A DNA stretch of 46,570 nt from Chrysochromulina tobinii (lineage: Eukaryota). The translations under genes were made by a program, and so were the position numbers. The stretch is taken from NCBI GenBank assembly GCA_001275005.1, contig JWZX01003284.1:1-46570 (forward strand). Reading direction: 5' to 3'. Below are positions 7,232-36,370 of the stretch, piece after piece (within the stretch, counting starts at the first letter, position 1; the number at the start of each line of letters is the position of its first letter). The notes under the pieces are model-generated. The model was not told the origin of the DNA, made no database searches, and was given only the letters and a program-made list of their open reading frames with translations.

Positions 7232-8074
7232 CTACGGCCCCGCCTGCCCCTGCTTATACTCGCGCTCGACGATCACCGGCCCGGAGCCCTTGCGCCAGTC
7301 GGCCACTGCAGCGGCAAAGGCCGCCCTCTCCGTCTCGCGCGTGAGCGCGTGTCTCGCCCTAGCCTCGGCGAGCGCAGCGTTCGAGTAGCGACGGCGCTGA
7401 TTCGACTCGCATACGGCCTGTACCGCGGCATGCAGCGCCGGCCGGGCACGCTCGGGCGAACTCACATTCTCAATGCCGATCGGCGGCGTCGGCAACTTCT
7501 CGAGCAGCCGCCGCAGGCTCTCAGGAGCGCTGGCGTCGAGCGCCGCCGCGAGCTCGGCCGCGCCTAATGGGCAGCCCGTGAAGACGAGCGCCGTGTGAGC
7601 GAGCGCCGACTCGCCGCAGTTCGCGACGAACGCATCTACCGCCGCCTCATGGTCCGGCCGAAAGCGACCCCACCGCACGACAAACAAGAAGACGTCGATG
7701 CCGGAGGGCGTGAGGTCCGAAAAGGCGGAGAAGCGCCGCATGACCTCCTCCGCGGGCAGACCCGTGTCGTGAAGCCCGATCGTATCGACGACGCGCATCT
7801 CGACCACCTCCTCAGCAATAAGCAGATAGTCACGGTGGGCCACGCCGGCAGTTTCGGACGATAAGCCGCCGCTGACGGCAAAAGCGTCCAATGCGCCGCA
7901 CAGCGTATTGCCCGTGCTCGACTTACCGTCGCCCGTGACGCCGACGAGCACGATCGCGCGCAGATTCGCGTCCTCCTCTGGCTCGGAGGACTGCTGTGCC
8001 TCCGCGAGTGCCAGAAGAGCTTGCATCGATTGCTCCGCCGCGCCGATGTAAAGATCCAGCCCCTCTTTTCTCAT
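7232..8074 (-). CDS. AIG1/GIMAP (IAN)-family P-loop GTPase
   Basis: IVLVGVTGDGKSSTGNTLCG (G1), VVDTIGLHDT (G3), 'GIDVFLFVVRWGRF', 'HTALVFTG' (G4 region) and a C-terminal helical tail. Start placed at ATG 8074; ATG 8026 is an alternative. Confidence 0.85.
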   Translation of the reverse strand: MRKEGLDLYIGAAEQSMQALLALAEAQQSSEPEEDANLRAIVLVGVTGDGKSSTGNTLCGALDAFAVSGGLSSETAGVAHRDYLLIAEEVVEMRVVDTIGLHDTGLPAEEVMRRFSAFSDLTPSGIDVFLFVVRWGRFRPDHEAAVDAFVANCGESALAHTALVFTGCPLGAAELAAALDASAPESLRRLLEKLPTPPIGIENVSSPERARPALHAAVQAVCESNQRRRYSNAALAEARARHALTRETERAAFAAAVADWRKGSGPVIVEREYKQGQAGP

Positions 8075-8358: not shown

Positions 8359-11300
8359 ATGCCATACATTGACCTGCCCGGCAGTGCCATGAAGCGTGGC
8401 TTTAGATTGAGCCGCGCCGCAGCGAACCGGCCGTACCGCGAGTGGACGGACGAGGGGCCGCAGCAACCGTCCATGGACGCGGGCTACTCTCCGGTGGACG
8501 ACAAGCGTGCCAAGCGTGAGGCGGCAATCGTCGTGCAGCGGTGGTACCGCCGGCAGCTGCTCAAGTTCGCCACCTTCGGGCCGGTCATATTCACGCGGCG
8601 CGACGGCAAGCTCGCCGATTTTGGCTCGCTCTCGTTCCTCGGCGGCACGCGGATCGCCTACTACATTCGCATCTCGGACACTACGTCATCGGCTATGCTC
8701 TCGCACTTCTTGGAGAAGTATTGGCGGCTGCCGCGACCGGACGTGCTCATCTCGGTCACGGGCTCTGCCGCATCGCTCCAGCTGACCTCGCAGCTGCAGC
8801 GGGTCTTCGACCGCGGCCTCGCGTCGGCGGCCGCGATGACGAACGCGTGGATCTTCACCGGAGGCACGGACAGCGGCGTGATGAAGCTCGTAGGCGAGGC
8901 GATGCATAAGTACGGGCTGGTGGACGTGCCGGTCGTGGGCGTCGCGCCGTGGGGCGCGATTGCGGGGCGCAAGGAGCTGAGCGACAAGAAGGGTCAAACC
9001 ATCGAGGTGATGGCATGGCAATACGAGTGCGCCTCTGCGTGCGCCTCTGAGTGCGCCTCCGAGTGCGTCCAATTGCCTGCCTCATCAGGTGATGTACGGC
9101 AAGACCGGGATGGACACTGTCGGCCGCCTCAACCCCTACCACACGCATCAGATCCTCGTGGACGCGCCGGACGGCGGGAGCGAGGCCACCGCCTGGGGCT
9201 CGGAGATCGGGCTGAGATCGCGCCTCGAGCGCACGTACGCGATCACAGTGATAGATGGCCATTGATGACCTCTGATTGCCTCCCTCATCAGGCTCGGAGA
9301 TCGGGCTGAGATCGCGCCTCGAGCGCACGTACGCGGTCGCAGTGATAGATGGCCATTGATGACCTCTGATTGCCTCCCTCATCAGGTATGCGATCTCGAA
9401 GGGCGTGCCCGTAGTGCAGCTCGTCATCCAGGGCGGACTGGGCACGCTCGACACGTGCATCGCTTCCGCTGAGCTCGGATCGCCGTTACTCATCCTCGCC
9501 GACTCGGGCGGCGCGGCCACGGCCATCGCGCAGTTCTGCACGGGGGGAGAATCGGGGGGAGGTGTGTGAGTGCATGCGGAGTGCCTCGCGGACTACATCT
9601 CTGAGTGCATTCTGATGGCATCTCTGAGTGCATGCTGAGTGCCTCGCGGACTGCATCTCTGAGTGCATGCTGATGGCATCTCTGAGTGCATGCTGATTAC
9701 ATCCCTCATCGCGGATTGCATCTCTGAGTGCATTCTGATGGCTGATGGCGCATCCGCTCTGAGTGCATGCTGATTACATATCTGAGTGCATGCTGATTGC
9801 ATCTCTGAGTGCATGCTGATAGTGCATCCGCTCTGGCGGTGGGGGATTCTGATTGCCACGGATTGCCACGGATTGCCACGGATTGCAGCACGCTCTGACG
9901 GGTTGGGGATTCACGTGGAATCCTCGACGCGCTCGAGAGTGCCGTGTGATTGCATCTGTGAGTGCCGTGTGATTGCATCTTTGATTGCATGCTGACTGCC
10001 TCTGTGAGTGCATGCTGCTGAGTGCAGGAGGGGACATCGACGCGGTTGAGAGCGCCGACTTCATCGCGCAGGAGCCCAAGCTGCGCCAGCTCAAGTCGCT
10101 CAACGACGAGCGCGGGGGCACGTTGCTCAGCTTCTTCAAGCTGCAGGATGAGGACTCTCAGCAGAACATGTCGAGCGCCATCTTGGGCGCGCTCTTCCGG
10201 AACCTGATGTTCCACCAGCCGGGCCAGGCGGTGGGCAGCTCCATCACGCCGGCCATGCAGCGCCTGGCCAAGCGCCGTTCTGAAGTGTACGACGGCGCGG
10301 CGGTGGTGAAGGCGGCGACAGATGAGATCTTCAAGCGTTACCTCGATCAGATGCAGGTGTGTGATTGCCCTCGATTGGTTGCTGTGATGGCCTCACTCAT
10401 CACAGAGGCACGGGATTCCCGCTGATGGCCTCACTCATACAGAGGCACGCGGGATTGCCGCTGATGGCCTCACTCATCACAGAGGCACGCGGGACTGCCG
10501 CTGATGGCAACGATGTGCGACTGATCGGCATGATGTACGGCCATGGGCATGTACATACGATTATACATACGATTATACATACGACTGATCGGCATGATGG
10601 CTTCCCTCGGCAGCGCGCGCTGCTGCTCACTGTCAAGTGGAATCAGCCAAGCTTCGCGAGGCGCATTCTCGTCGACCTGCCACCCTCGCACGATCACACG
10701 CGCCCGATGCGTAAGATGCTTCAGCATGCGATAGGACAGCGCCGGCTGGAGATCGTGCGCCTGCTGCTCGAGCGCCCAGGTGCGATCTCCCTTGATGACC
10801 ACTGATTGCATGCCAATGGCACCCGATCGTGCGCCTGCTGCTGCTCGGACGTTCAGGCACCGCAATCTCGTCTGTCAGCCTGTGCCAGCTGTACTTGCTT
10901 GAGGACCCGTACAATTACTTACGCCGAGATCTCGCGCTCCAGGCGAGATTACAGCGAGCTCTGAGCGAGATCGCGCGAGATGGGAACACACAGGCCCAAT
11001 GGGGTTCCGCCTACCTTCTCTTCCGCAACACGGTTGGACCCACGCTTCGAGCGGTCACGCCGCTGCTCGGCGGCATCATCGAGAATCAGCGTCTTTGCAC
11101 GCACGCCGATGTCTTCTTCTGGTGAGTGCCCTCTGATGGCGCCTCTAATGGCCTGTGATGGCCTGTGATGATGGCCTCTGATTGCATTTCTGGTGAGTGC
11201 CCTCTGATGGCGCCTCTGACGGCGCCTTTGATGGCCTCTGATGATGGCCTCTGATTGCATCTGATGGCCTCCCTCATCAGGTGCGTCTTCATGGGCGACG

Positions 11301-14300
11301 TGCGCCTCGCGCGCGAGCTCTGGGCCTACGTGGAGCATCCCCTGCACTGCGCACTGATCGCAAGCCACGTGCTCAACGTGATCGCGTCGCGCGCGTCGGC
11401 TGCCAAGATTGAGGCGCGCGCGGCGGCGGCCGAGATAGAAGCTTGGGCGATGGGCGTGATGGACGAAATCCAGGAGCAGGAGGTCGGCCACTGGCTGCTC
11501 TCGCAGCACGTGCCTGCGTGGGGGCTCGGCTCGATCGTCGATCTCGCCCTCCAGGTGCGATCTCCCTTGATGAGCACTGATTGCATGCTGAGTGCACTCC
11601 CTCGGTTCGATCGTCGATCTCGCACCCTCCGATGGAGCTCGTGAGGAGATCGTCGATCTCGCACCCTCCGATGGAGCTCGTGAGGAGATCGTCGATCTCG
11701 CACCCTCCGATGGAGTTCGTGAGCTTCCTCGGATGGCCTGATGGCCTCGGATTGCCTATGATGGCCTCTGATTGCCTCTGATTGCCTCTGATTGCCACTC
11801 ATGAGCTCTTCGATCTCGATCTCGCCCCCCAGATGGAGCTCAAGACCTTCCTCGCGCATCGTCACTGCCAGTCGCTGATGGATCTACGATGGCGCGGCGG
11901 CTTCCCGGTGCTTACCTCTAGGCCTCTGATGGCCTCTGATGGCCTCTGATAGCCTCTGATGGCCTCTGATGGCCTCTGATGGCCTCTGATGGCCTCTGAT
12001 GGCCTCTGATGGCCTCTGATGGCCTCTGATGGCCTCTGATGGCCTCTGATGCGCGGCGGCTTCCGTGCCTTCAGGGCTCCGGCTGCATCGTGCCTGCGTC
12101 CCACTCGATGCCCCTCATTTCTGCGTGGATGCTCTTCCCCTTGTTGAACCCGTACTTGCGGCGCGACGCTGAGGGCAAGTCCGGCGAACGCTCATCCAAT
12201 GCCCCAACCCATTCCCCCGGGGGATCTTCGACTTTTGGCAACGATGGGTACGATGAGGATGATGACTTCTGATGACCTGTGATGACTTCTGATGACCTCT
12301 GATGACCTCTGATGACCTCTGATGGCCTCCCTCATCAGGTACGATGAGGATGATGGGCAAGTCAGCCCGATTGGGGAGGATCCCGAGCTCTTGCTCGGGG
12401 CGCTCGCGGAGGCGCTCAACCTCAAGGAGTACGTCTGATGGCTTCTGATGAGCTTTGATTCCCTCTGAGTGCCTCTCATCGCCTCTGATGGCCTCTGATG
12501 GCCTCCAGTGGCCTCCAATGGCCTCTGAGTGCCTCTGATGGCCTCTGAGTGCCCTGAGTGCCTCTGATGGCGCCCCTGTCTCAGGTTCGAGAAGAAGAAG
12601 GCACGGGCCGCTCTCGATGTCGAGGCGGAGAAGAAGCGCCTTGAGGTGGAGAAGGAGAGTGCTCTGCAGAAGGCGCTGGCGGAGGCTGCGCGTGCAAAGG
12701 CAAAGGAGGAGTGGGCGGCGCAGCGTGCTGCTCAAGAGGCACGCTCGGGCGCGGGCGTGGTGGACCCACGTCACCAGAGGTCACCTGATCAGAGGTCACC
12801 TGAGGATCTCCGCGATCTCCCTCCGAAGAAGGCATTCAAGAGCGTCGCGGTCAACGTGATGGAGATGGATGACAAGCGCGGGGTGGGTGTAGATGGATCA
12901 CCAACTAAGCGGCTCGCGGTCACGCTCCGCGCCCTCTCCCTTCGTCGGGAAGGCTCGCAGTCCGCTCTGCTCGGGCGCTCATTCAAGCACCAGCAGACCT
13001 TCTCGCACTCGGTCAAAAGTCTCGTCAACCGCGGGTTTCGTGACGCACCGGAGGTGGCCAAGAGACCCAAGAGTGTGAATGTGAATGGCTTCTACTCAGT
13101 GCTCTTGATTGCGTCCCTCATCAGGTGGCCAAGAGACCCAAGAGTGGTTTCTACTCAGTGCCCCTGGTCAAGTACTGCATGCGCGCCGTGTCGCACGTGC
13201 TCTTCTTGTGCCTCTATTTCGAGGTCTGCACCCATCTGCTCACCTCGCTGATGACCTCTGATGACATCGGATTGCTTCTGATGACCTCTTGATTTCCTAC
13301 CTCATCAGGTCCTCACCCATCTGCTCACGGTGGATCAGCTCTGGGCCATGTCACCGAGGCTGCCGCCGCTCACGTGGGCCGAGCTGATGCTGATCGTCTG
13401 GTCCCTTACACTGGGGTACGAGCATCGGCAGCGCGACTACCTGATGAAAACGTACGGGCTGATTGCGGACTCATGGCTCAAGTCACTTGTGAACACGGCG
13501 CACATGGTGATGAATGCCGCCATCGGGCTGCGCCTCGTCACGCGGATCCCGGGCTTCGAGTTCGCCTCGGCGTATACGGCCTATCAGACGCTAGTCTCGT
13601 TCGACGCCGTCCTCATGTGTTGCGAGACGTTCACTTTCATGTGGACTTCACACAATTTCGGCATCCTGGCGATCACGCTCGTGCAGATGATGATCGACCT
13701 CTCGCTATTCCTCGTCTTCTTCTCGGTCATTATCGTCGGCTTCTGCTTCGCGCTCGTCGGCCTCTCAGAGACGGTGATTGCAGCTGATTGCGTCTGAGTG
13801 GCCCTTTGATTGCGTCTGCTTCGCACTCGTGGCCTCTCAGAGACGGTGATTGCAGATGATTGCGTCTGAATGGCCCTTTGAGTGCGCCTGATGGCCTCCC
13901 TCATCAGGCTGGAGAACACGATCTACTCTCCGCAGCCACTTTCGAAGACATCAAATCCGCGGGCCACACCCTCTCCGGCGCCGCCGTCGCCGCCGCATCC
14001 GTCGCTTCGGATTCTATTCGGGCCGGCATCACGTCGGCGTCGGCGTCGGGTGGTCGACGCCTATCAGTCGACGCGACGGACTCTGTGGACCGGCGTCTGC
14101 TGTCGGCCATCGACATGCTCGGCGGCGGTGGTGGTGGCGGCGGAGGCGTGCAGACCGAGCCCCTGGCGCTCTATTGGCAACCTTTCTGGTACATGTACGC
14201 CGAGTTTGACATCGATGTGCTTCGTCAAGTGCCCTTCGCTCTCCCGCTAATGTGGGTGTACGTGCTGCTCGCCAACGTTGTGCTCGTCAACATGCTGATC

Positions 14301-15262
14301 GCGATGTTTGCGGACACGTACACGCGCATCAAGCGGAACGCGGAGGTCGAGTATCAGTATCAGCACTACCTTCACATCTTCGAGTACCAGCACGTCGTGC
14401 ACCATCTGCCGCCGCCCTTCAATGCTCCCATGCTGCTCTGGGATGCCTGCCGCGCATGCTTCCGCTCGACCGAGGCCCTGGAGCGGCTCGTCCGAATGGA
14501 CTTTGGCGCCTTTCCAGAGCGTGAGTACCTGGAGCTGTATGGGGCGGCGCCGCTGCTTCATGGGGCAGGTTCCTCGGGCAGCTCCACTCTGAGCCGCAAG
14601 TGCGTGCTTGGCTCTTGCTCTGATGCGCTCTGATGCGCTCTGATGCGCTCTGATGGGCTCTGATGGGCTCTTATGGGCTCTGATGGGCTCTGATTGGTTG
14701 AGAGCCTGTGCGCGCCACTGATGACCTGCGATGACCTCTGATGACCTCCGATGCCCTGTGATGGCCCACTGATGCCCGCTGATGACCTCTGATTGCCTCC
14801 CTCCTCAGGTATGTTCAGCGATTCCTCAAGGCTCGCGCGGAGGTGACGAACCACTGATGACCTCTGATTGCCTCCCTCAGGTATGTTCAGCGATTCCTCA
14901 AGGCTCGCGCGGAGGTGACGAACCAGACGTCGCAGGCGGCGCTCGTGCGCCGTATTGAGCAGATGGTCGACGATCTTGAGGAGAGCCTGCAGCACGAGTT
15001 CGAGCACATCAGCAACAGCCTCGTGGCGCAGCGCGACGAGACGAACCGCAAGTTTAAGTACATTGTGGCCGCCGTCGACCGCGCGGCACGCGGCGAGGTC
15101 GCCAAGTCGAGCCAGGTGGGCGTGCAGGCGATGAAGGAGGCAGTCCGCGCCCCCACCACCTCGCCGCCTGCGACGTTGCGCACGGCACCGCAGGGCGGCG
15201 GCGGCGGTGGCGGCGGGCCCGGCGGTGCGGCCCAGCCCAAGAGGATACAAAGGCAGGTTTAG
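8359..15262 (+). CDS. TRPM-like cation channel with N-terminal SLOG/MHR region; 15 exons (introns 9007-9088, 9235-9385, 9562-10027, 10357-10613, 10780-10856, 11122-11280, 11555-11832, 11908-12074, 12248-12338, 12429-12584, 13054-13124, 13224-13308, 13774-13907, 14600-14880)
   Basis: The spliced frame is continuous. It shows TRPM hallmarks LISVTGSA, AWIFTGGTDSGVMKLVGEA, VGVAPWG, LNPYHTHQILVD, GSEIGLRSRLE, VPVVQLVIQGG, ILADSGGAA, LLLTVKWNQ, KTFLAHRHCQSLMDLRWRG and FYSVPLVKY. S6 reads ANVVLVNMLIAMFADTY, followed by LPPPFN and a C-terminal coiled coil. All introns are GT-AG with consistent phases. Confidence 0.85.
9197..9384 (+). repeat. 94-bp tandem duplication spanning an exon end and a whole intron unit
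   Basis: ggctcggagatcggg...ctccctcatca at 9197-9290 and 9291-9384, nearly identical. Confidence 0.9.
9566..10025 (+). repeat. Intronic degenerate array of CTGAGTGCAT/CTGATTGCAT units plus (GATTGCCACG)n
   Basis: Visible repeats filling TRPM intron 3. Confidence 0.85.
11609..11723 (+). repeat. Three 39-bp intronic repeats resembling the spliced exon7-exon8 junction
   Basis: Unit gatcgtcgatctcgcaccctccgatggagctcgtgagga at 11609, 11648 and 11687, compared with the spliced junction gatcgtcgatctcgccctccag|atggagctc. Confidence 0.9.
11921..12050 (+). repeat. (GGCCTCTGAT)x13 intronic array
   Basis: Near-perfect decamer tandem repeat with one variant unit. Confidence 0.95.
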
Positions 15263-24153: not shown

Positions 24154-27093
24154 TCAAAAGAGGACAAAGACGTCGAGCCCGGGACGGGGCCGACTCGCCT
24201 CGAGCTCGCAGACGGTGAGCGTTAAGGGCGGCGCAACGATGAGCGCGCCGAGCATCACGCTCTGGCAGACCCATGGCAGGTTGTCGTGCGAGGGCGATCC
24301 CGGCCATGGAAGTGCCGCCCACGCTCGCGAGTCACCGGTCGCGCGCGAGAGGAGAGGGCTGGCGCTGAGGAGCGCGAGGACGGCGGCGCCCAACCCGACG
24401 GCGATGGCGAGATGCAGCCGTTGGGCCAGCCTCGCCACCTCACCCGCGGCCACTTGCTCTCTCCGAGGAGCAAGACAAGAGAGACTCACCAGGTGGACAA
24501 GGGCAGCGGCCGCCCAGGCCGCACGCGCGACATCGAAGACGAGGTCCGACAGCGCCTCAGGCACCATGAGCACCACCCCGAAGAGTACCCAGAAGAGGCG
24601 CAGCGACGGCCAGGCGACGCGCAGCGCGAAACGGCTCGTTGGGCCAGTCGCCGTGGTGAGGCTGGGCGGGAGAGGGCTCCTGTGGGAGTCTTCAGCCGGG
24701 TGAGAGCGTGCGCTCAGCAGCAGCCAGCTTGGGCACAGGGCGCCGTGTACGAGCGCAGCGCTCAGCACGGCGGTCAGCGGTGCGGTGGAGACGGCGTTGA
24801 GCACGGACAATTCGTAACTGACCACTCGACCCATTTCGTGCTCCGGCGGCCAGGGCGCAATCTCCAATGACGCAAGCCACGGCAGCACGCTGAGCAGTGC
24901 GAGCGGCATCGCCTGCAGCCACGCGTCCTCGCGCAGATGCTGCAGAGCGACCTCCATGCTCGAGCCTCGCGCCGATCTGGCGCGGCCGTTACTCCACACG
25001 GCGCTCGACACGGCGCTCGATCCTCGGGCAACAACGTGAGGCGAAATGGGCGGCCGGCATGGGGCGGCCGGGTTGGCGGCGAGCACGGCGACGGCGGCGA
25101 CGGCGACCGTCTGCAGGCTGGCGTAGGCGGCGCTCGTGGCCTGTACCATGCCAAGCACGTGGAGTACCAGATGAAGGACGAGCCCAGCTGTGGACAATGT
25201 GAGCACGCACCACGCGAGCAGCAAGGCCCATCCGTGGGTGGCCGCTGACTGTGTACACCACGTGAGCAGCGCGGCCCACAGTGTGGACACACCAGACCAC
25301 GCCAGCGGCGACGTCCATGGGGTAGGGAAGTGTGCATGTGAATGGGAGTGTGAGAGCGAGACCGACTTGAGGCCGCCGACTGGAGGCAGCCGCCGCCCAA
25401 GACAACGCGTCGCCACGGCAAAAAAGGCGAGCGAGGCGCCCACGTCGACGGCGGGCGCCATCAAGTGCCATCCCTCCGTGGCCCATGCGTAGGAAGAGCT
25501 AATCAGCCAGAGCCAGAGCAGCGCGCAAGTCCCGTGCACCCACCGGAGCTCAAGCGCCGTGTTGAGCTCGAGTGGCCCGCTGGAGCTCCCGAGTGCTGTG
25601 AATGCTGCCCTCGTGTGAATGCTGGAGCTCCCGAGTGCTGTGAATGCTGCCCTCGTGTGAATGCTGGAGCTCCCGAGTGCGTGGGCATCGCCGCTGTCCG
25701 AGTCACCCTCGTCTACGAAACGGCTCGAGATGCCTTTGTGACTGCTGCTGCTGCTGCTGCTGCTGCCGGCGCCGAGGTGGCTGTCGGCGCCGTGGCCGGG
25801 GCCTCCGCCGCCCCTGCTGGCACCGCTGCCGGCCGTGCCGCTGCCCTTGCTGACGCTGTTCCCGCCCGCCTCATCGTTGCCGGCGCTCGCTAACATGAAG
25901 AGGATCGCGGGGCAAAGGCAGAGGCAGAGTCCTCCCATCGCGTGGCCGTTGGAGGCATACGCGACGAGAATCTGCGCCGCGGCATGCTCCGGCGCGGCTG
26001 CGAACTCGCAAGCGAGGTCACGTCGCACGTCGGTGTCGACGGCCCACGCAGCGCCGAGTAACGGCAGCGAGGCCGCGTACAGGACGGGCAGAGCTGCGGC
26101 AAAGACGCGCGCGGCGGTACCATCGAGGAGCAGCGGCGCACTCACGGCAATCACGAGCGCGGCTGCAGAGCCCCTCAGTCTTAGCACCCCATCCAATGAA
26201 AAGTTCTCGATGCCGGCGCTGTGCGCGCTGCCGCACTCGGAGGCGATCGCGCCCACGAAGCCCACCGCTCCTGCGAGCGGGAGGTATGCCACCAAGCGCG
26301 GCACGTATCGCAACACGAGCGGGGCGTTGGTCACCGCCGCCTCTGCGGTCGCCGTGGCCGCCGTCGGGCACGTGGCAGTGGTCGACGAGCAGCAGCACAT
26401 CGCCGCCGCCTCACCCAAGCGTTTGCAGCGCGGCCAGACCTCTTGGTACCATGCCTGCATCCCTGCCTCCACGAGCTTCGAGCGGGGTCTCGGCAGCGGT
26501 GGTGGCGCGGCGACGTAGACGGCGGAGGCGACCGTTGAGGCGACAGGTCGCGAGGAAGCGACGCCCTTCACGGCTCCGATGCGCACGCGCGGAGGCGGCG
26601 CGGGAAATGAGATGGGGGGCGGGGCGGCTGGCGACGGAGTCGCGGGTGTCGGAGCGGGCGCCTGGTTAGCTGGCTCTGGTGGCTCAATGGGAGCCTGAGT
26701 GCGTGTACTTGCACGTACCGCGGCCCTCGCCACTCGCGCCTCGGCGTCCGCATGCACCTCGTCCGCAATCGCCTGTGTTGGGGTCGCTTCCTTGGGCTCA
26801 AGGGAGGCTGATGATCTCGAATCGGAGCGCTTCAAGAAGTCATCGGCCTCCCTGAGCCACAGAGGCGTCTGTGCTGTCGTCTCCTCTGTGACGGATCTGG
26901 GCTGTGGCTTAGCAGAGTCCACTTGGGCATTTCCCGATGCCTCTGCCAACCCAGGCGGCATCCCTGGCGGAAAGGGCGTGGACGCTCGCATTGGAGACGC
27001 AGGCGGGCTGTGGTGGCCCTGGTTGGTCGGTTGCATTGTCTTTCGACAAAAGGCGCTCCAGACAGGTGTGAAATTATAGCAGGCCTTTTGCAT
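24154..27093 (-). CDS. Hypothetical multi-pass membrane protein with Pro/Ala-rich N-terminus
   Basis: Uninterrupted ORF of about 1000 aa with many hydrophobic helices in the C-terminal two thirds. Start uncertain (ORF open to 27204). Confidence 0.6.
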   Translation of the reverse strand: MQKACYNFTPVWSAFCRKTMQPTNQGHHSPPASPMRASTPFPPGMPPGLAEASGNAQVDSAKPQPRSVTEETTAQTPLWLREADDFLKRSDSRSSASLEPKEATPTQAIADEVHADAEARVARAAVRASTRTQAPIEPPEPANQAPAPTPATPSPAAPPPISFPAPPPRVRIGAVKGVASSRPVASTVASAVYVAAPPPLPRPRSKLVEAGMQAWYQEVWPRCKRLGEAAAMCCCSSTTATCPTAATATAEAAVTNAPLVLRYVPRLVAYLPLAGAVGFVGAIASECGSAHSAGIENFSLDGVLRLRGSAAALVIAVSAPLLLDGTAARVFAAALPVLYAASLPLLGAAWAVDTDVRRDLACEFAAAPEHAAAQILVAYASNGHAMGGLCLCLCPAILFMLASAGNDEAGGNSVSKGSGTAGSGASRGGGGPGHGADSHLGAGSSSSSSSSHKGISSRFVDEGDSDSGDAHALGSSSIHTRAAFTALGSSSIHTRAAFTALGSSSGPLELNTALELRWVHGTCALLWLWLISSSYAWATEGWHLMAPAVDVGASLAFFAVATRCLGRRLPPVGGLKSVSLSHSHSHAHFPTPWTSPLAWSGVSTLWAALLTWCTQSAATHGWALLLAWCVLTLSTAGLVLHLVLHVLGMVQATSAAYASLQTVAVAAVAVLAANPAAPCRPPISPHVVARGSSAVSSAVWSNGRARSARGSSMEVALQHLREDAWLQAMPLALLSVLPWLASLEIAPWPPEHEMGRVVSYELSVLNAVSTAPLTAVLSAALVHGALCPSWLLLSARSHPAEDSHRSPLPPSLTTATGPTSRFALRVAWPSLRLFWVLFGVVLMVPEALSDLVFDVARAAWAAAALVHLVSLSCLAPRREQVAAGEVARLAQRLHLAIAVGLGAAVLALLSASPLLSRATGDSRAWAALPWPGSPSHDNLPWVCQSVMLGALIVAPPLTLTVCELEASRPRPGLDVFVLF

Positions 27094-27219
27094 TTCCCCA
27101 CAGAGCGGGGGGCCTGCCGCGCTGCCTGGGAGGCGCCCCTTGATGAGGGATGTAATTGCGCCTGAAATTATAGGGAGGAGATTCGAAAATTCTACGCTCC
27201 ACAATTCTTTCCGACTCGA

Positions 27220-28336
27220 TTAGGAGCTCTTCTTGGCTCTCGCGCGCTGGTTCATCGACCTATTCATCGACGAGCCACCCGTCGCCCGGTTCTGACTGCG
27301 ACACGGCCTCGCTTCGGCCGGCGCGAATCCGTACAGGTTGATCCACGCCTCTTGGCACATGGTGCCGTAGTAGAACAGGAGCTCGCTCCCCTGGGCAATC
27401 GGCGCCGTCGCGGTCGCGACGAAACCCTGCGAGGCCACGTTGAACTCCGCACGGATGCCCACCTGCCCAAAATTGAGCATATCGAGCACGTCAAGTCAAG
27501 TCAAGTCAAGTCAAGTCAAGTCAAGTCAAGTCAAGTCGGATGCCCACCTGCCCAAAATTGAGCATGTCGAGCACGGGCGCAAGGAAGGCGCGGTGCTCGC
27601 CGTCGACGGGGAGCACCCAGTCGCGCGCCGAGATGATCGCAAAGAGATGGAGGAAGCGTTCCCACCGGTAGATCCTCTCGAGGTGCTCGGGTGGGCAAAC
27701 GGGCGCCGCACATCCCAGGCCCTCGGAGAGCGGCGCTGGGAAGTGCTCGATGGCGCCGAGGATGAGCGCGTCGTACTGGGCACGTGCGTAGTTGCGCGAG
27801 CGGCTCGCGAGCTCGCGCGCCATGGGCGTCAGCTTCCGGTACCGCTCTGAGCTCTCGGGCCACAGCATGGGCACCCCGCTCACGTCGTGCGACCGGATGA
27901 GCTGCAGGTATGGCATTTGAGGCGATCGCTCGCGCGCGAGCTCGCGCATGGCGTAGAGGACGATGCGCGTGCGGTCGTCCACGGATTCCCGCCGCCGCCG
28001 TGCCGAGCCATTCGGCCTTTCAACAAGGCTGAAGGCTGGGCTCAAGGTCCACTGCATGACCGGCAGCAGCGACGAGTTGCCGACCGTGTACCCGGAGAGC
28101 AGCTCGCGCACCGGCACATTGCAAAGACGTTCGCCCTTGTTGATCGGCGCGATCGCCTTCGCGCCGCGGATCGTCGCGCCAAGCGACTCGTAGTAGAAGA
28201 AGCCGACGCCAACCTTTGGGCATACTCTCGCCAGCGCGCTGCTCGCAACGTATTGCTCCCACAGCTCGGTGAGTTGCGTCAGGTTGCGGCCCTCCCAGGT
28301 GGTGCGCGCATACACGTCCGGCTGGCTCGACGGCAT
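27220..28336 (-). CDS. SET-domain protein of the Rubisco-LSMT/SETD3-like type; exons 28336-27548 and 27462-27220
   Basis: RGAKAIAPINKGERLCNVP, PYLQLI, VPMLWP, LAPVLDMLNF, FVATATAPIAQGSELLFYYG and LYGF. An 85-nt GT-AG intron at 27463-27547 joins the two ORFs in frame. Confidence 0.75.
27452..27575. repeat. 39-bp direct repeats (27452-27490, 27537-27575) flanking (TCAAG)x9
   Basis: cggatgcccacctgcccaaaattgagcatRtcgagcacg occurs twice with one mismatch, separated by a pentamer microsatellite. Confidence 0.95.
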
Positions 28337-28858
28337 TGAGCTCCAACGCCGAGAGCCTCAAGGCCGACGGCAGGCCCTGCAACCCCAAGAGCCGCGGTGC
28401 TGTTCACACATATATTCACACTTAGTGCCGGTAAAAAGAAACCGACACGCACGCATGCCGATCGGTCAGTCAGTCAGGTTTCGCGGACACACCCGCGCTC
28501 ACCACACTCCGTCGCAAAGGAGAGCTCCGCTGCCCCCGGTCAACACGTTCTGATTACGAGCGCCTCACATCTGGGCGTTTACTCATTGTTACAATGGGAT
28601 AACAATGGGATTGTTGCACGCACTGATGAACACGCACGCGCTACGCACGCGCGCGATGCCTTTTGGCAACTTGCGTCGGCGTTTACAAATCGTTGAGCCC
28701 GGTGACTCGTTACTGATCTTCTGAAAGCTTAGATCGCGGGGAATCAAAAGAAAAGCTTCTAGCTTGGGGGGGAAAAAAGAAAATTAAAGTGACACCGTGC
28801 GGTGGAGACGACCCCGCTCGCGCGCGACCCCGCGCTCGAGGCCCTCACGCAGAGGACC

Positions 28859-30289
28859 TCACGCCTTCGACGGCACAATGCACACACAGACCGGCGTGGG
28901 CACCTTCGTGGTCAGCTCCGTTGGCGGCCCGCCCTCGCAAAGGACAACGATCTTGTCGTCGTTCTGGTTGGCGACGAGCGCGAGCATGCCTGCCTGCGGC
29001 TCGGCGCTCGCGGCCGCGCCGCCGCCGTTGTCGCTGCCGCGCCGCTGCCTCTTCGTAGGGCTTGCGCTTGGAAGCCCCGGTAGCATCGCGAAATCGCGCG
29101 GAGTTTCGCCGAGGGTGCGCGTGACGCGGATGGGACGATCGTGGGCATCGACGAAGAGGCCCGATGGTGTGAGCGGGATGGCCGAGAGGGCGCCGGGTTC
29201 ACCCTCAATGCGCGACGACACGACCAGCTGAGATCCGTCCGGCGTCACGGCGATGGCGGCGAGGCTCGTCACTTTGTCAGAGCACACGCGCCTGCCGTGG
29301 CCTGGCTTGAGGCCACTCGCGTCCGTGCCCTCAAGCGCCCAGTTGGGTGCGACGAAGCGCGTGAACTCCTTCGAGGCATCGACAGTGCAGCCTGAAGGCA
29401 GCCGCGCGCCCGCACCCGGCAGCTCGCCGTGCAGAAAGTGGCTGCCGACGCCATCGAGTGCACACAGGAGCCCAACGGGCGGCTCGTCGCTGATCGCGCC
29501 GCTCTTGCGATCGATCTTGAATGCGGCCACCAGACTCGTAAGCTCGTAGCACACGTAGCACACCGCTTCCGTTGGATGCAGCGCAAGATGGCGCGGCCCA
29601 CCGCCCGCGAGCGCTTGATGGCTCCCCGATGGCACCGGCTCGCCGAGCGGAGCGGACAGGCTTGCTGCGTCGAAGGGGATCGACCACACGACGTCCGAGC
29701 CGAGGTCGGGCACGAGGACCGTCGACGATTTCGTGCCCGCCGAGACGTGCACCATGTGTGCGTGCGCTCTCTCCTGTCGCGCCGCGTTTGGCAGCGGGTA
29801 GGTGATCGGGTGCGTGGCCGGTGGCAAGTCCACGTATTGCACGTTGGTGCCGTCGAGCTTGCCGTCAGGCAGCCGTGCGATCGCGACCACCGAGCCTGTG
29901 AGGTAGTTGGCCGCGAGCACGTGCGACCCGCCCGGTGCTACAGTCACGTGGCAGCACGCGGCGGCGTCCGCCAGGTCCCGTCGAATGGGCTCGCCGTTGC
30001 AAGCCAGCTCGCCCGTGCTCTCATTCAGGGTGAGCGCCGCGACGAAGCCGGCATCGCTGTGCGACTCCTCGACCACGTAGACGTCCAGCCGGTCTGCCAC
30101 GGAGTCACGGAACACGGTGACGTAGGACGGGTTCTTGAAGACGTCGCCAAGCTGCGCCTTGCCAAAGTCCTCGGTGAAGGCGAGAGACGAGCGGTCAAAT
30201 TTTAGGACATAGAGGCCCTTGCCTTTGCCGTTCACGTGGCCGAGCTTCTCGCCGTACGTGCCACAGATGACGAGGTGCTCCATGTTCAT
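28859..30289 (-). CDS. 6-phosphogluconolactonase-like 7-bladed beta-propeller lactonase (Pgl/YbhE family)
   Basis: ICGTYG, NPSYV, CCHVTV, ANYLTGSV, QERAHAHMV, VPDLGSD, GGPRHLALHP, YELTS, TPRDFA, VANQNDDKIVV and VPTPVCV. No intron. Confidence 0.85.
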   Translation of the reverse strand: MNMEHLVICGTYGEKLGHVNGKGKGLYVLKFDRSSLAFTEDFGKAQLGDVFKNPSYVTVFRDSVADRLDVYVVEESHSDAGFVAALTLNESTGELACNGEPIRRDLADAAACCHVTVAPGGSHVLAANYLTGSVVAIARLPDGKLDGTNVQYVDLPPATHPITYPLPNAARQERAHAHMVHVSAGTKSSTVLVPDLGSDVVWSIPFDAASLSAPLGEPVPSGSHQALAGGGPRHLALHPTEAVCYVCYELTSLVAAFKIDRKSGAISDEPPVGLLCALDGVGSHFLHGELPGAGARLPSGCTVDASKEFTRFVAPNWALEGTDASGLKPGHGRRVCSDKVTSLAAIAVTPDGSQLVVSSRIEGEPGALSAIPLTPSGLFVDAHDRPIRVTRTLGETPRDFAMLPGLPSASPTKRQRRGSDNGGGAAASAEPQAGMLALVANQNDDKIVVLCEGGPPTELTTKVPTPVCVCIVPSKA

Positions 30290-30525
30290 CGCACGAGTTA
30301 CAAAGAGAAAAGCGGAAGTGTGAATGGTGACAAATGGCACGAACGTGTACTTTCTTTTCTGAAGAATCCCTTTGGACAATACCTGTGGTCCCTTGTGGAC
30401 ACACATTCACATTCACACACACTCATTCACACTTGTGTGTGCGACTTGGTGCGACCCGGCGTGGAGTGAGTCTCGCTTCGCGCACCGGGACTGCTGGCCC
30501 ACCTCGATCCGGGATCAGCATCGCA

Positions 30526-34801: not shown

Positions 34802-36370
34802 ATGGTCGGCCACAAGTTCGCAGACAAAGTCTCCCTTCGCGAGTATCTTCTTGCGCACGGCGTGGATTCCATCGCATGGGGCACGCGCGGTGCCAAGCAC
34901 GTTGAGGACCTGCTCGAGGAGCTGCAGCAAGGGGAAGCATCGCTGCAGCTCGTCGATGGCAAGATCTATCGCAACCTGGGCGTCGTGAAGCTGATCGTAC
35001 GCAGCCCGGAGGTCCCAGGGCAGCATCTCGTTTGCTACGAGCAGCAGATGGCCGACGGGCGCAAGCGCCAACGCAACGTGCTTCTGGCGGAGAAGAAGAA
35101 GCGCAACGAGACGGCAGATCAGGCTGCGATGCGAGCCATCAGGGAGGAGCTGGGCAGCGTCAAGGGGATGAAGCTCGACAGTGTGCTGCTGCGCGTGGGC
35201 ACCTACAAGAATTGGGAGGAGGCCGATGTGTCTCCATCATATCCGACGCTCTCCACCCGGTACGAGCTGCATCAGTATGAGGTGCGCGTGCGCGGCCTGC
35301 CCAAGCATCCGTTCATGACGGTTGAGGATGCTGGCGAGGGCAAGAAGAAGTTCAACTTTTGGAAGTGGGTCGTCGACTCCGATGACGATCTTCGGTACAA
35401 GGGCTTTGCCACTGGGCAGCGGCTCTCAGACGTCCACGAGGAACACCCAATAAACCCCAGCAAGTGGCAGCCGTCGGGAGTCGCTCAAAACATATTCGCA
35501 GACAAGGTGGAGGCGCGTAAGTACCTTCTCTCGCACGGTGTGGATACAGCCGCGTGGGGCGTATGTGATGCCAAGCGCATCGAAGACCTGCTCGAGGAGC
35601 TGCAGCAAGGGGAAGCATCACTGCAGCTCGTCGATGGCAAGATCTATCGCAACCTGGGCGTCGTGAAGCTGATCGTACGCAGCCCGGAGGTCCCAGGGCA
35701 GCATCTCGTTTGCTACGAGCAGCAGATGGCCGACGGGCGCAAGCGCCAACGCAACGTGCTTCTGGCGGAGAAGAAGAAGCGCAACGAGACGGCAGATCAG
35801 GCTGCGATGCGAGCCATCAGGGAGGAGCTGGGCAGCGTCAAGGGGATGAAGCTCGACAGTGTGCTGCTGCGCGTGGGCACCTACAAGAATTGGGAGGAGG
35901 CCGATGTGTCTCCATCATATCCGACGCTCTCCACCCGGTACGAGCTGCATCAGTATGAGGTGCGCGTGCGCGGCCTGCCCAAGCATCCGTTCATGACGGT
36001 TGAGGATGCGGGCGAGGGCAAGAAGAAGTTCAACTTTTGGAAGTGGGTCGTCGACTCCGATGTCGATCTTCGGTACAAGGGCCCTTCGACGGGTGTCCTC
36101 GGCTTCAATGAGTTGTTGGCTCAGCGTCCGCCGTCGACCATAGGAGACAGCCGCAAGGGCTTCGACGTCGCGTTCATCAACTCGCCAATAGGCTCCGCCA
36201 CTTACTGGCCCGCGGCGACTGCATTCTTGTCGCCGCGCAGCGTTCATTGCTGGCAGCCCAGCGTAAACGAGGGGGGGGGGATCCTCACGCCGACGTGGCA
36301 GCCGCCGCAGGCGCAGTCACTCGCCAACCCCGTTTCCAGGCGCCACCCACATCGCACTACGCCATTTTGA
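34802..36370 (+). CDS. Protein with two tandem NUDIX-like domains; the C-terminus may extend to 36764 via a frameshift
   Basis: Repeated domain containing WGxxxAKxxEDLLEELQQGEASL, EKKKRNETADQAAMRAIREELG (Nudix-box-like) and SPSYPTLSTRYELH. Confidence 0.7.
   Translation: MVGHKFADKVSLREYLLAHGVDSIAWGTRGAKHVEDLLEELQQGEASLQLVDGKIYRNLGVVKLIVRSPEVPGQHLVCYEQQMADGRKRQRNVLLAEKKKRNETADQAAMRAIREELGSVKGMKLDSVLLRVGTYKNWEEADVSPSYPTLSTRYELHQYEVRVRGLPKHPFMTVEDAGEGKKKFNFWKWVVDSDDDLRYKGFATGQRLSDVHEEHPINPSKWQPSGVAQNIFADKVEARKYLLSHGVDTAAWGVCDAKRIEDLLEELQQGEASLQLVDGKIYRNLGVVKLIVRSPEVPGQHLVCYEQQMADGRKRQRNVLLAEKKKRNETADQAAMRAIREELGSVKGMKLDSVLLRVGTYKNWEEADVSPSYPTLSTRYELHQYEVRVRGLPKHPFMTVEDAGEGKKKFNFWKWVVDSDVDLRYKGPSTGVLGFNELLAQRPPSTIGDSRKGFDVAFINSPIGSATYWPAATAFLSPRSVHCWQPSVNEGGGILTPTWQPPQAQSLANPVSRRHPHRTTPF
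34905..36081 (+). repeat. Near-identical coding duplication of about 500 bp, period 678 bp
   Basis: ~34905-35403 versus ~35583-36081 show only a few substitutions. Shadow ORFs 35032 and 35710 translate identically. Confidence 0.95.

Follow-up and report, generated by a model that had tools for sequence, protein, structure and literature searches.

It is rarely possible to trace an intron back to the mutation from which it arose. The question raised by the locus described here, from Chrysochromulina tobinii, is how an intron came by two splice sites that are visibly copies of one junction. The window, by which is meant the whole stretch of 46,570 nucleotides that was analysed, carries on its minus strand a SETD6/SETD3-like gene with an 85-nt GT–AG intron, and this intron probably derives from duplication of a junction containing AG/GT (the slash marking the exon boundary), with filler DNA placed between the two copies. 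Junction duplication is a known but rarely traceable source of introns, and the present case is a good natural example of it. The intron is almost certainly real and spliced; it is neither strictly tandem in construction nor very young, and its site is not unique.

Anatomy of the duplicated junction

Two minus-strand open reading frames (ORFs) adjoin the feature, one at 27521–28357, which ends ...LDMLNFGQVGIRLDLT before its stop codon, and one at 27220–27495, which begins LDVLDMLNFGQVGIRAEF.... Pfam gave no family for either half or for the joined protein, and no SET match was found by Pfam in P0001, a protein of the same length as the joined product (see below). Sub-threshold SET matches were obtained in three of the four relatives scanned, with scores of 17–19.8 bits where the cut-off is 22.4. 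When 20 family members were combined into a profile, this matched human SETD6 (3qxy_A) with an E value of 1.9e-11 and SETD3 with one of about 1e-3, while a protein-atlas feature search gave 0.97 to SET clusters. Going by these comparisons, the gene is a putative SET-domain protein methyltransferase gene of the SETD6/SETD3/LSMT-like type. Its upstream neighbour, also on the minus strand (28859–30406), is a single 515-aa ORF with a seven-bladed beta-propeller lactonase domain (PF10282, E 1.6e-37).

A preliminary description of this DNA had reported a 39-bp segment that occurs twice on the minus strand with one mismatch, the copies being separated by about nine pentamers alone, a microsatellite acting as filler. 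This structure of repeat and array is confirmed. Repeat search returned one two-copy family, 97% identical (38/39) and with a start-to-start spacing of 85 nt, and the sole content between the copies is 46 nt of perfect (CTTGA)n (Table 1). Along the minus strand the order is ...GCGCC-(CGTGCTCGACATGCTCAATTTTGGGCAG/GTGGGCATCCG)-ACTTGA(CTTGA)n-(CGTGCTCGATATGCTCAATTTTGGGCAG/GTGGGCATCCG)-TGCGGAG..., with each copy enclosed in round brackets. Tandem Repeats Finder placed the array at 27490–27537 (period 5, 9.6 copies, 100% matches), and it is the sole such pentamer array among the 140 rows returned for the window.

The tetranucleotide AGGT is present once in each 39-nt unit. In the upstream copy, exon 1 ends with the first 28 nt, and the last 11 nt (GTGGGCATCCG) form the 5′ end of the intron, with the donor GT at 27547–27546. 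In the downstream copy the first 28 nt, ending TTTTGGGCAG, form the 3′ end of the intron, with the acceptor AG at 27464–27463, and the last 11 nt start exon 2. The nine TTGAC motifs of the array place their A residues 28–68 nt from the 3′ splice site. The lone mismatch between the copies lies at unit position 10, where the upstream copy reads GAC and the downstream copy GAT. The codon at this position is GAC in 10 out of 10 loci of intron-less relatives, so it is the downstream, intronic copy which carries the change.

Such a repeat is far longer than those found in shuffled DNA. In 10 first-order Markov shuffles of the window, searched for non-overlapping direct repeats with one mismatch allowed and a spacing of 40–200, the longest comparable repeat measured 13–17 nt, against the 39 observed. 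Contigs of the DNA run X1 enter the array from each of the copies, one spanning 27150–27516 and the other 27510–28400. The same structure is found in two metagenome contigs (L001 and L002), which have 0 mismatches to the window over 6114 nt; because of this identity they represent the same strain and were rejected as independent confirmation.

Table 1. Parts of the intron and its flanking exons, in minus-strand order
Feature	Position	Strand	Basis
Exon 1 (Met1 to Gln263) in the SET-like gene, with the end ...CTCAATTTTGGGCAG	27548..28336	-	ORF 27521-28357; residues equal P0001 1-263
Upstream 39-nt copy	27537..27575	-	Repeat search
85-nt GT..AG intron, phase 0, between Gln263 and Val264	27463..27547	-	Frame restoration, P0001 match, RNA contig layout
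Filler, perfect (CTTGA)n microsatellite with nine TTGAC motifs	27491..27536	-	Tandem Repeats Finder, motif count
Downstream 39-nt copy, with mismatch T for C at 27481	27452..27490	-	Repeat search
Exon 2, Val264 to Ser343, stop TAA at 27222-27220	27220..27462	-	ORF 27220-27495; equals P0001 264-343 except R318H

Other repeats are present in the window. In and around its 9000–15000 region the motif CCTC[AC]TCAG has ten matches on the plus strand and zero on the minus strand. Nine of these lie between 9088 and 14808 and come after CTGATGGCCT-like 10-mers or short tandem repeats related to them, the tenth, at 7815, has no preceding array, and seven of the ten are then followed by GT. These sites look like what are possibly the 3′ ends of a repeat-filled, introner-type family of introns in one gene. 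At 14779–14925 a 72-nt unit occurs 2.0 times, with a 51-nt exact core containing CAG/GTATGT and GAG/GTGACG, that is, a splice-site-bearing segment in tandem which adjoins one of the array introns. A large tandem duplication is seen at 34907–36082, where a 498-nt segment is repeated at 99% identity and a spacing of 678. Next to the SET-like gene, the minus-strand ORF 24154–27219 (1021 aa, no Pfam match) contains at 25579–25680 a 42-nt unit repeated 2.4 times at 100% identity, in which GSSSIHTRAAFTAL occurs twice in frame.

Splicing of the segment

Retention of the segment gives the reading ...GQVGIRLDLT, with a stop at 27523–27521. Its excision (27547–27463) joins both ORFs into one of 343 aa, in which a single copy of the repeated segment is left. 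Among the 12 GY..AG pairs that restore the C-terminus when 27620–27430 is scanned, this pair is the only one to yield 343 residues. The conceptual product and P0001 (343 aa) share 342 of 343 residues and differ by R318H; P0001 was predicted from a single public Logan contig of 2287 nt, for which RNA and an intron-less DNA allele are both conceivable as source. The proposal made from the sequence at the outset, namely that joining the GT of the first copy to the AG of the second leaves one copy and the SET reading frame, is borne out by this product.

Conservation and the forms in which the gene is found agree with this. The site is uninterrupted in 18 full-length relatives, and the 80 C-terminal residues, which retention would remove, are conserved (ELLFYYG, YGFAP). 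The protein belongs to a 68-member cluster, where the 15 members listed include four 271-aa forms and six C-terminal forms of 80–89 aa, these split forms sitting on long genomic contigs (up to 102 kb). All three of the 271-aa forms examined end ...GQVGIRLDLT-stop, and the 196-aa P0036 likewise ends ...LDLT-stop. Four of the 80–89-aa forms were examined, three of which start at or before MLNFGQ and one at VGIR.

Transcript data bear on the same point. In the polyA-RNA run X18 a contig of 286 nt lies on 27231–27490 and carries a further 7 letters that are unlike the array; it departs from the genome at 27490, whereas the DNA contig of X1 goes on 26 nt into the array. The exon-1 contig of X18 ends at 27553. 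If the 7 letters correspond to 27582–27576, the two X18 contigs overlap by 30 letters, i.e. k-1 for words of 31 letters, an argument which assumes that the contigs were built with 31-letter words, the word length sampled by the index of the run. Taken from the contig table, this layout fits a spliced message. A joint across 27548 and 27462 was not seen among the run contigs compared with the stretch. The exon contigs of two further RNA runs, X14 and X15, have a depth of 3–5 and stop at 27452, 27460, 27561 and 27632; because these do not bridge the site, they weigh neither for nor against splicing.

That the insert is instead kept in the mRNA, so that a truncated protein of 271 aa or a pseudogene results, or that the duplication is an artefact of assembly, is very improbable indeed. 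This reading draws on the fact that no junction read was directly seen, and on the nature of the array as a genome-wide repeat at which short-read contigs break. Against it, the reading frames of both halves remain intact in several strain variants and also in the sister lineage described below, the joined 343-aa form exists as P0001, the X18 RNA contig stays out of the array, and the X1 DNA contigs reach the array from both copies. The segment is thus very likely to be spliced as an intron and, judged by its donor and acceptor and by the conserved ORF that its removal restores, it would be of the spliceosomal GT–AG type.

Distribution among strains, a sister lineage and distant relatives

The split form is found in all four strain variants examined (P0027, P0029, P0030 and P0036); each of them ends ...GIRLDLT-stop, which makes the intron widespread in the species. 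In a sister lineage at 96% amino acid identity, whose structure was read from translated ORFs, the same segment is found in other arrangements. Its exon 1 ends ...LDMLNFGQVC-stop in P0038 and P0039. The downstream ORF reads MTSDG-LDMLNFGQV-VRPTECLPCMHVLTTTPLPR-LDMLNFGQVGIRAEF... in P0041, P0048 and P0059, which includes a 20-aa filler and gives the segment three times, at a period of 87 nt. P0052 starts within the filler, while P0053 and P0057 read MTSDG-LDMLNFGQVGIRAEF..., the layout of two copies. The filler differs between the window lineage and the sister lineage, that of the sister being non-pentameric, and the back-translation of MTSDG is compatible with a degenerate (TTGAC)2. Recombination between the last two copies could turn the three-copy form into the two-copy form, whereas the reverse would need a new insertion. 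On these layouts, either the duplication would predate the split of the window lineage from its sister or duplication of the junction would have recurred.

The 20-aa filler of the sister was also considered as a decayed copy of exon 2, as would follow from a plain 87-nt tandem duplication, and this was rejected, the local alignment score of 14 being reached by 2624 of 5000 shuffles. The antisense ORF across the intron (27374–27850), when searched for the sister intron in another frame, gave 306 candidates, none significant. When contigs of bacterial and archaeal genomes were scanned for stray algal contigs with relatives, eight pattern matches came up, none of which was confirmed.

The initial view of the intron as very young is consequently too strong, as a sister at 96% amino acid identity has the same segment two to three times with other filler, and specificity to one lineage likewise has partial support. 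The intron is older and less unique than its first appearance suggests.

An intron at precisely this codon boundary occurs in no fewer than five more distant lineages, and in one of them it was checked in DNA. In this one, the metagenome locus L013 (GC 0.47; identity 59% and 43% in its two pieces), coding breaks at ...AACTTTGGCCAG/GTGCTATG... and resumes 2.1 kb further on at ...TTTCTAG/GTTGGCGTGCGC, at the identical position and with GT..AG ends. The others are recognised by ORF breaks, with the C-terminal ORF pieces P0042, P0043/P0045, P0044 and P0046 (together with P0062 and P0064) passing from unrelated residues into homology precisely at Q-VGIR. In P0042 and P0046 the intron-derived ORF part has GQ ahead of VGIR; as a possible relic of an old duplication this concerns 2 of 4 lineages, a number too small to carry weight. 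The intron-bearing pieces of these distant lineages have their best matches in different subfamilies (P0007/P0018, P0003 and P0014–16). At L013 (903–1300) the exon end ...LLNFGQ and the first intron bases (GTGCTAT.AATTATA) occur twice, 280 nt apart, and the same exon end has therefore been duplicated there too.

No intron is present at the boundary in the loci L006–L010 (contigs of 1,982 to 11,845 nt), in P0018 (16.5-kb contig), P0019 (11.7 kb) and P0020 (25.6 kb), or in P0021 (67% identity) and P0024. The contigs of the last two are probably genomic, because their ORF ends look intron-derived at other places. L011 and L012 are uninformative on the intron, their terminal A/T runs marking them as transcripts, as are L003–L005, which may be transcripts. 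The boundary reads CAG/GT in 10 of the 11 loci other than that of the window, the exception being L008 with CAG/AT, and is thus a conserved proto-splice site. In P0013 (with P0066, P0068 and P0069 of the same length), a 58-aa in-frame, repeat-rich insert follows straight after NFGQVGIR in comparison with its close relative P0011. Judged from the residues, this insert could be a retained GT..AG intron of 174 nt in phase 1, lying 13 nt downstream of the site in the window, provided that the flanking codons are GGT and GAA.

Whether relatives lack the intron, a point raised in the preliminary description, has a divided answer. It is absent from the loci and contigs just named (L006–L010, P0018–P0021 and P0024) and present in the sister lineage, in L013 and in P0042, P0043/P0045, P0044 and P0046. 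To explain so patchy a distribution, one would have to assume that introns were gained several times at a favoured site or that an old intron was lost repeatedly. Because at least five distant lineages share an intron at the boundary, de novo gain at an empty site is not established, and the position may be inherited instead of new. The shared position in distant relatives thereby bears on the choice between common ancestry and repeated use of a favoured proto-splice site.

Origin of the intron and comparison with known systems

The best reading is that the intron was born or remodelled by duplication of the conserved CAG/GT junction together with filler, and was later altered by repeat dynamics. 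Duplication of the junction would have taken place at the conserved CAG/GTGGGCATCCG site, either when a staggered break was repaired or through a slipped or microhomology-mediated event, the upstream copy becoming the source of the donor GT and the downstream copy that of the acceptor AG. The (CTTGA) array, either captured from elsewhere or grown in place, would have expanded later as filler, and is the predicted source of TTGAC branch sites 28–68 nt from the acceptor. Units would then be added or removed as the direct copies recombine. Counting against this explanation are the 46 nt that lie between the copies and the lack of an exon counterpart to the filler. The tandem-duplication model invoked at first accordingly holds in part, with one AGGT segment supplying both splice sites but the copies not being adjacent.

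It is also possible, if rather doubtful, that an old intron was remodelled. The position would then be inherited, and the interior would have been replaced during repair of a break inside it, with a spliced transcript, a cDNA or an intron-less allele as the template, in what amounts to a failed intron loss. Each broken end would have copied across the junction and the ends would have been joined with filler and without annealing, leaving the 39-nt overlap duplicated. Such a course is favoured by the exact-boundary intron seen in the DNA of L013 and by ORF breaks in four lineages, by the different subfamilies that the distant intron-bearing pieces match best, and by the second unit of the sister, which fits repeated events at an existing intron. 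However, several losses are needed, because fairly close relatives (P0021 at 67% identity, P0020, P0018 and L006–L010) lack the intron; furthermore, no remnant of an older interior is visible and the mechanism is one put forward by the present analysis. A broader proposal, itself unlikely, would make the conserved CAG/GT junction a recurrent target of junction-copying, with breaks repaired from the spliced message or an intron-less copy and filler trapped in the process. If true, intron content would be renewed repeatedly while its position stays fixed, and one cause would serve for the 39-nt duplication, the two- and three-copy haplotypes of the sister and the unrelated introns at the identical boundary.

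Insertion of a mobile element, in which (CTTGA)n would represent either a retroelement tail or a short introner-type element placed in a CAG/GT site with a 39-nt target-site duplication, is quite improbable. The array is indeed dispersed, with 441 X1 contigs matching a 1251-nt stretch and 413 of them doing so at two places, and the introners of Chrysochromulina sp. have target-site duplications that supply a splice site, as stated in the part of the source drawn on here (PMC9860276). Yet the introner duplications described in that text measure 3–9 bp, compared with 39 nt in the present intron, which has no sequence of its own beyond the microsatellite. What is shared with other loci is the microsatellite only, with no common flank at other arrays among the six X1 loose-end rows listed (consensus agreement 0.43–0.59), and the duplication in the sister has a non-pentamer filler. 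A mobile-element origin is not supported by these observations.

With junction duplication as the preferred reading, the window and the sister locus together form a natural series on how a duplication becomes a working intron and how short such an intron may be. The series also bears on whether a microsatellite can supply length and branch sites.

Among known systems, the model in which introns originate by tandem duplication reportedly goes back to Rogers in 1989. It has been re-enacted for vertebrate ATP2A1 (PMC3265369), and a case in the potato RdRp gene is described (PMC4974935), as far as the available text of these two sources goes. As in the model outlined there, the GT comes from the upstream and the AG from the downstream copy of one exon segment, and the message is restored exactly. 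Unlike in that model, a 46-nt microsatellite without exon counterpart separates the copies, and the duplicated 39-nt unit alone would make a very short intron here. The cases described in these extracts also differ from the present one in that the sister lineage here has up to three copies and distant relatives hold introns at the site. The intron has the two AGGT-bearing copies of the tandem-duplication class, without their adjacency.

Introners are transposon-derived introns, and the type found in Chrysochromulina sp. has 4-bp target-site duplications, according to the sections available of its description (PMC9860276). The likeness to the account in those sections lies in an insertion bracketed by a duplication that supplies a splice site, and other introns of this alga in the window resemble a repeat family. 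The present intron differs from that account in having neither family-specific sequence nor terminal repeats, and its duplication is about 10 times longer and provides both splice sites.

The anatomy agrees with what would be expected of break repair with filler: at a staggered or resected break of the junction, the overlap is filled in at each end, with DNA caught in the middle, as set out in the accessible portions of two reviews (PMC3443670, PMC3020277). For Daphnia, the same portion of the former (PMC3443670) discusses gains that occurred in parallel at a single site. At 39 nt, the repeat greatly exceeds the ‘short direct repeats’ mentioned in those portions (PMC3443670, PMC3020277), and the filler, unlike that of the introns they portray, is a pure pentanucleotide array that may have grown after the event. 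In common with these introns, filler is bracketed by a direct repeat of the target which overlaps both splice sites. The intron thereby has the features that mark the class, a target repeat over both splice sites and unrelated DNA between.
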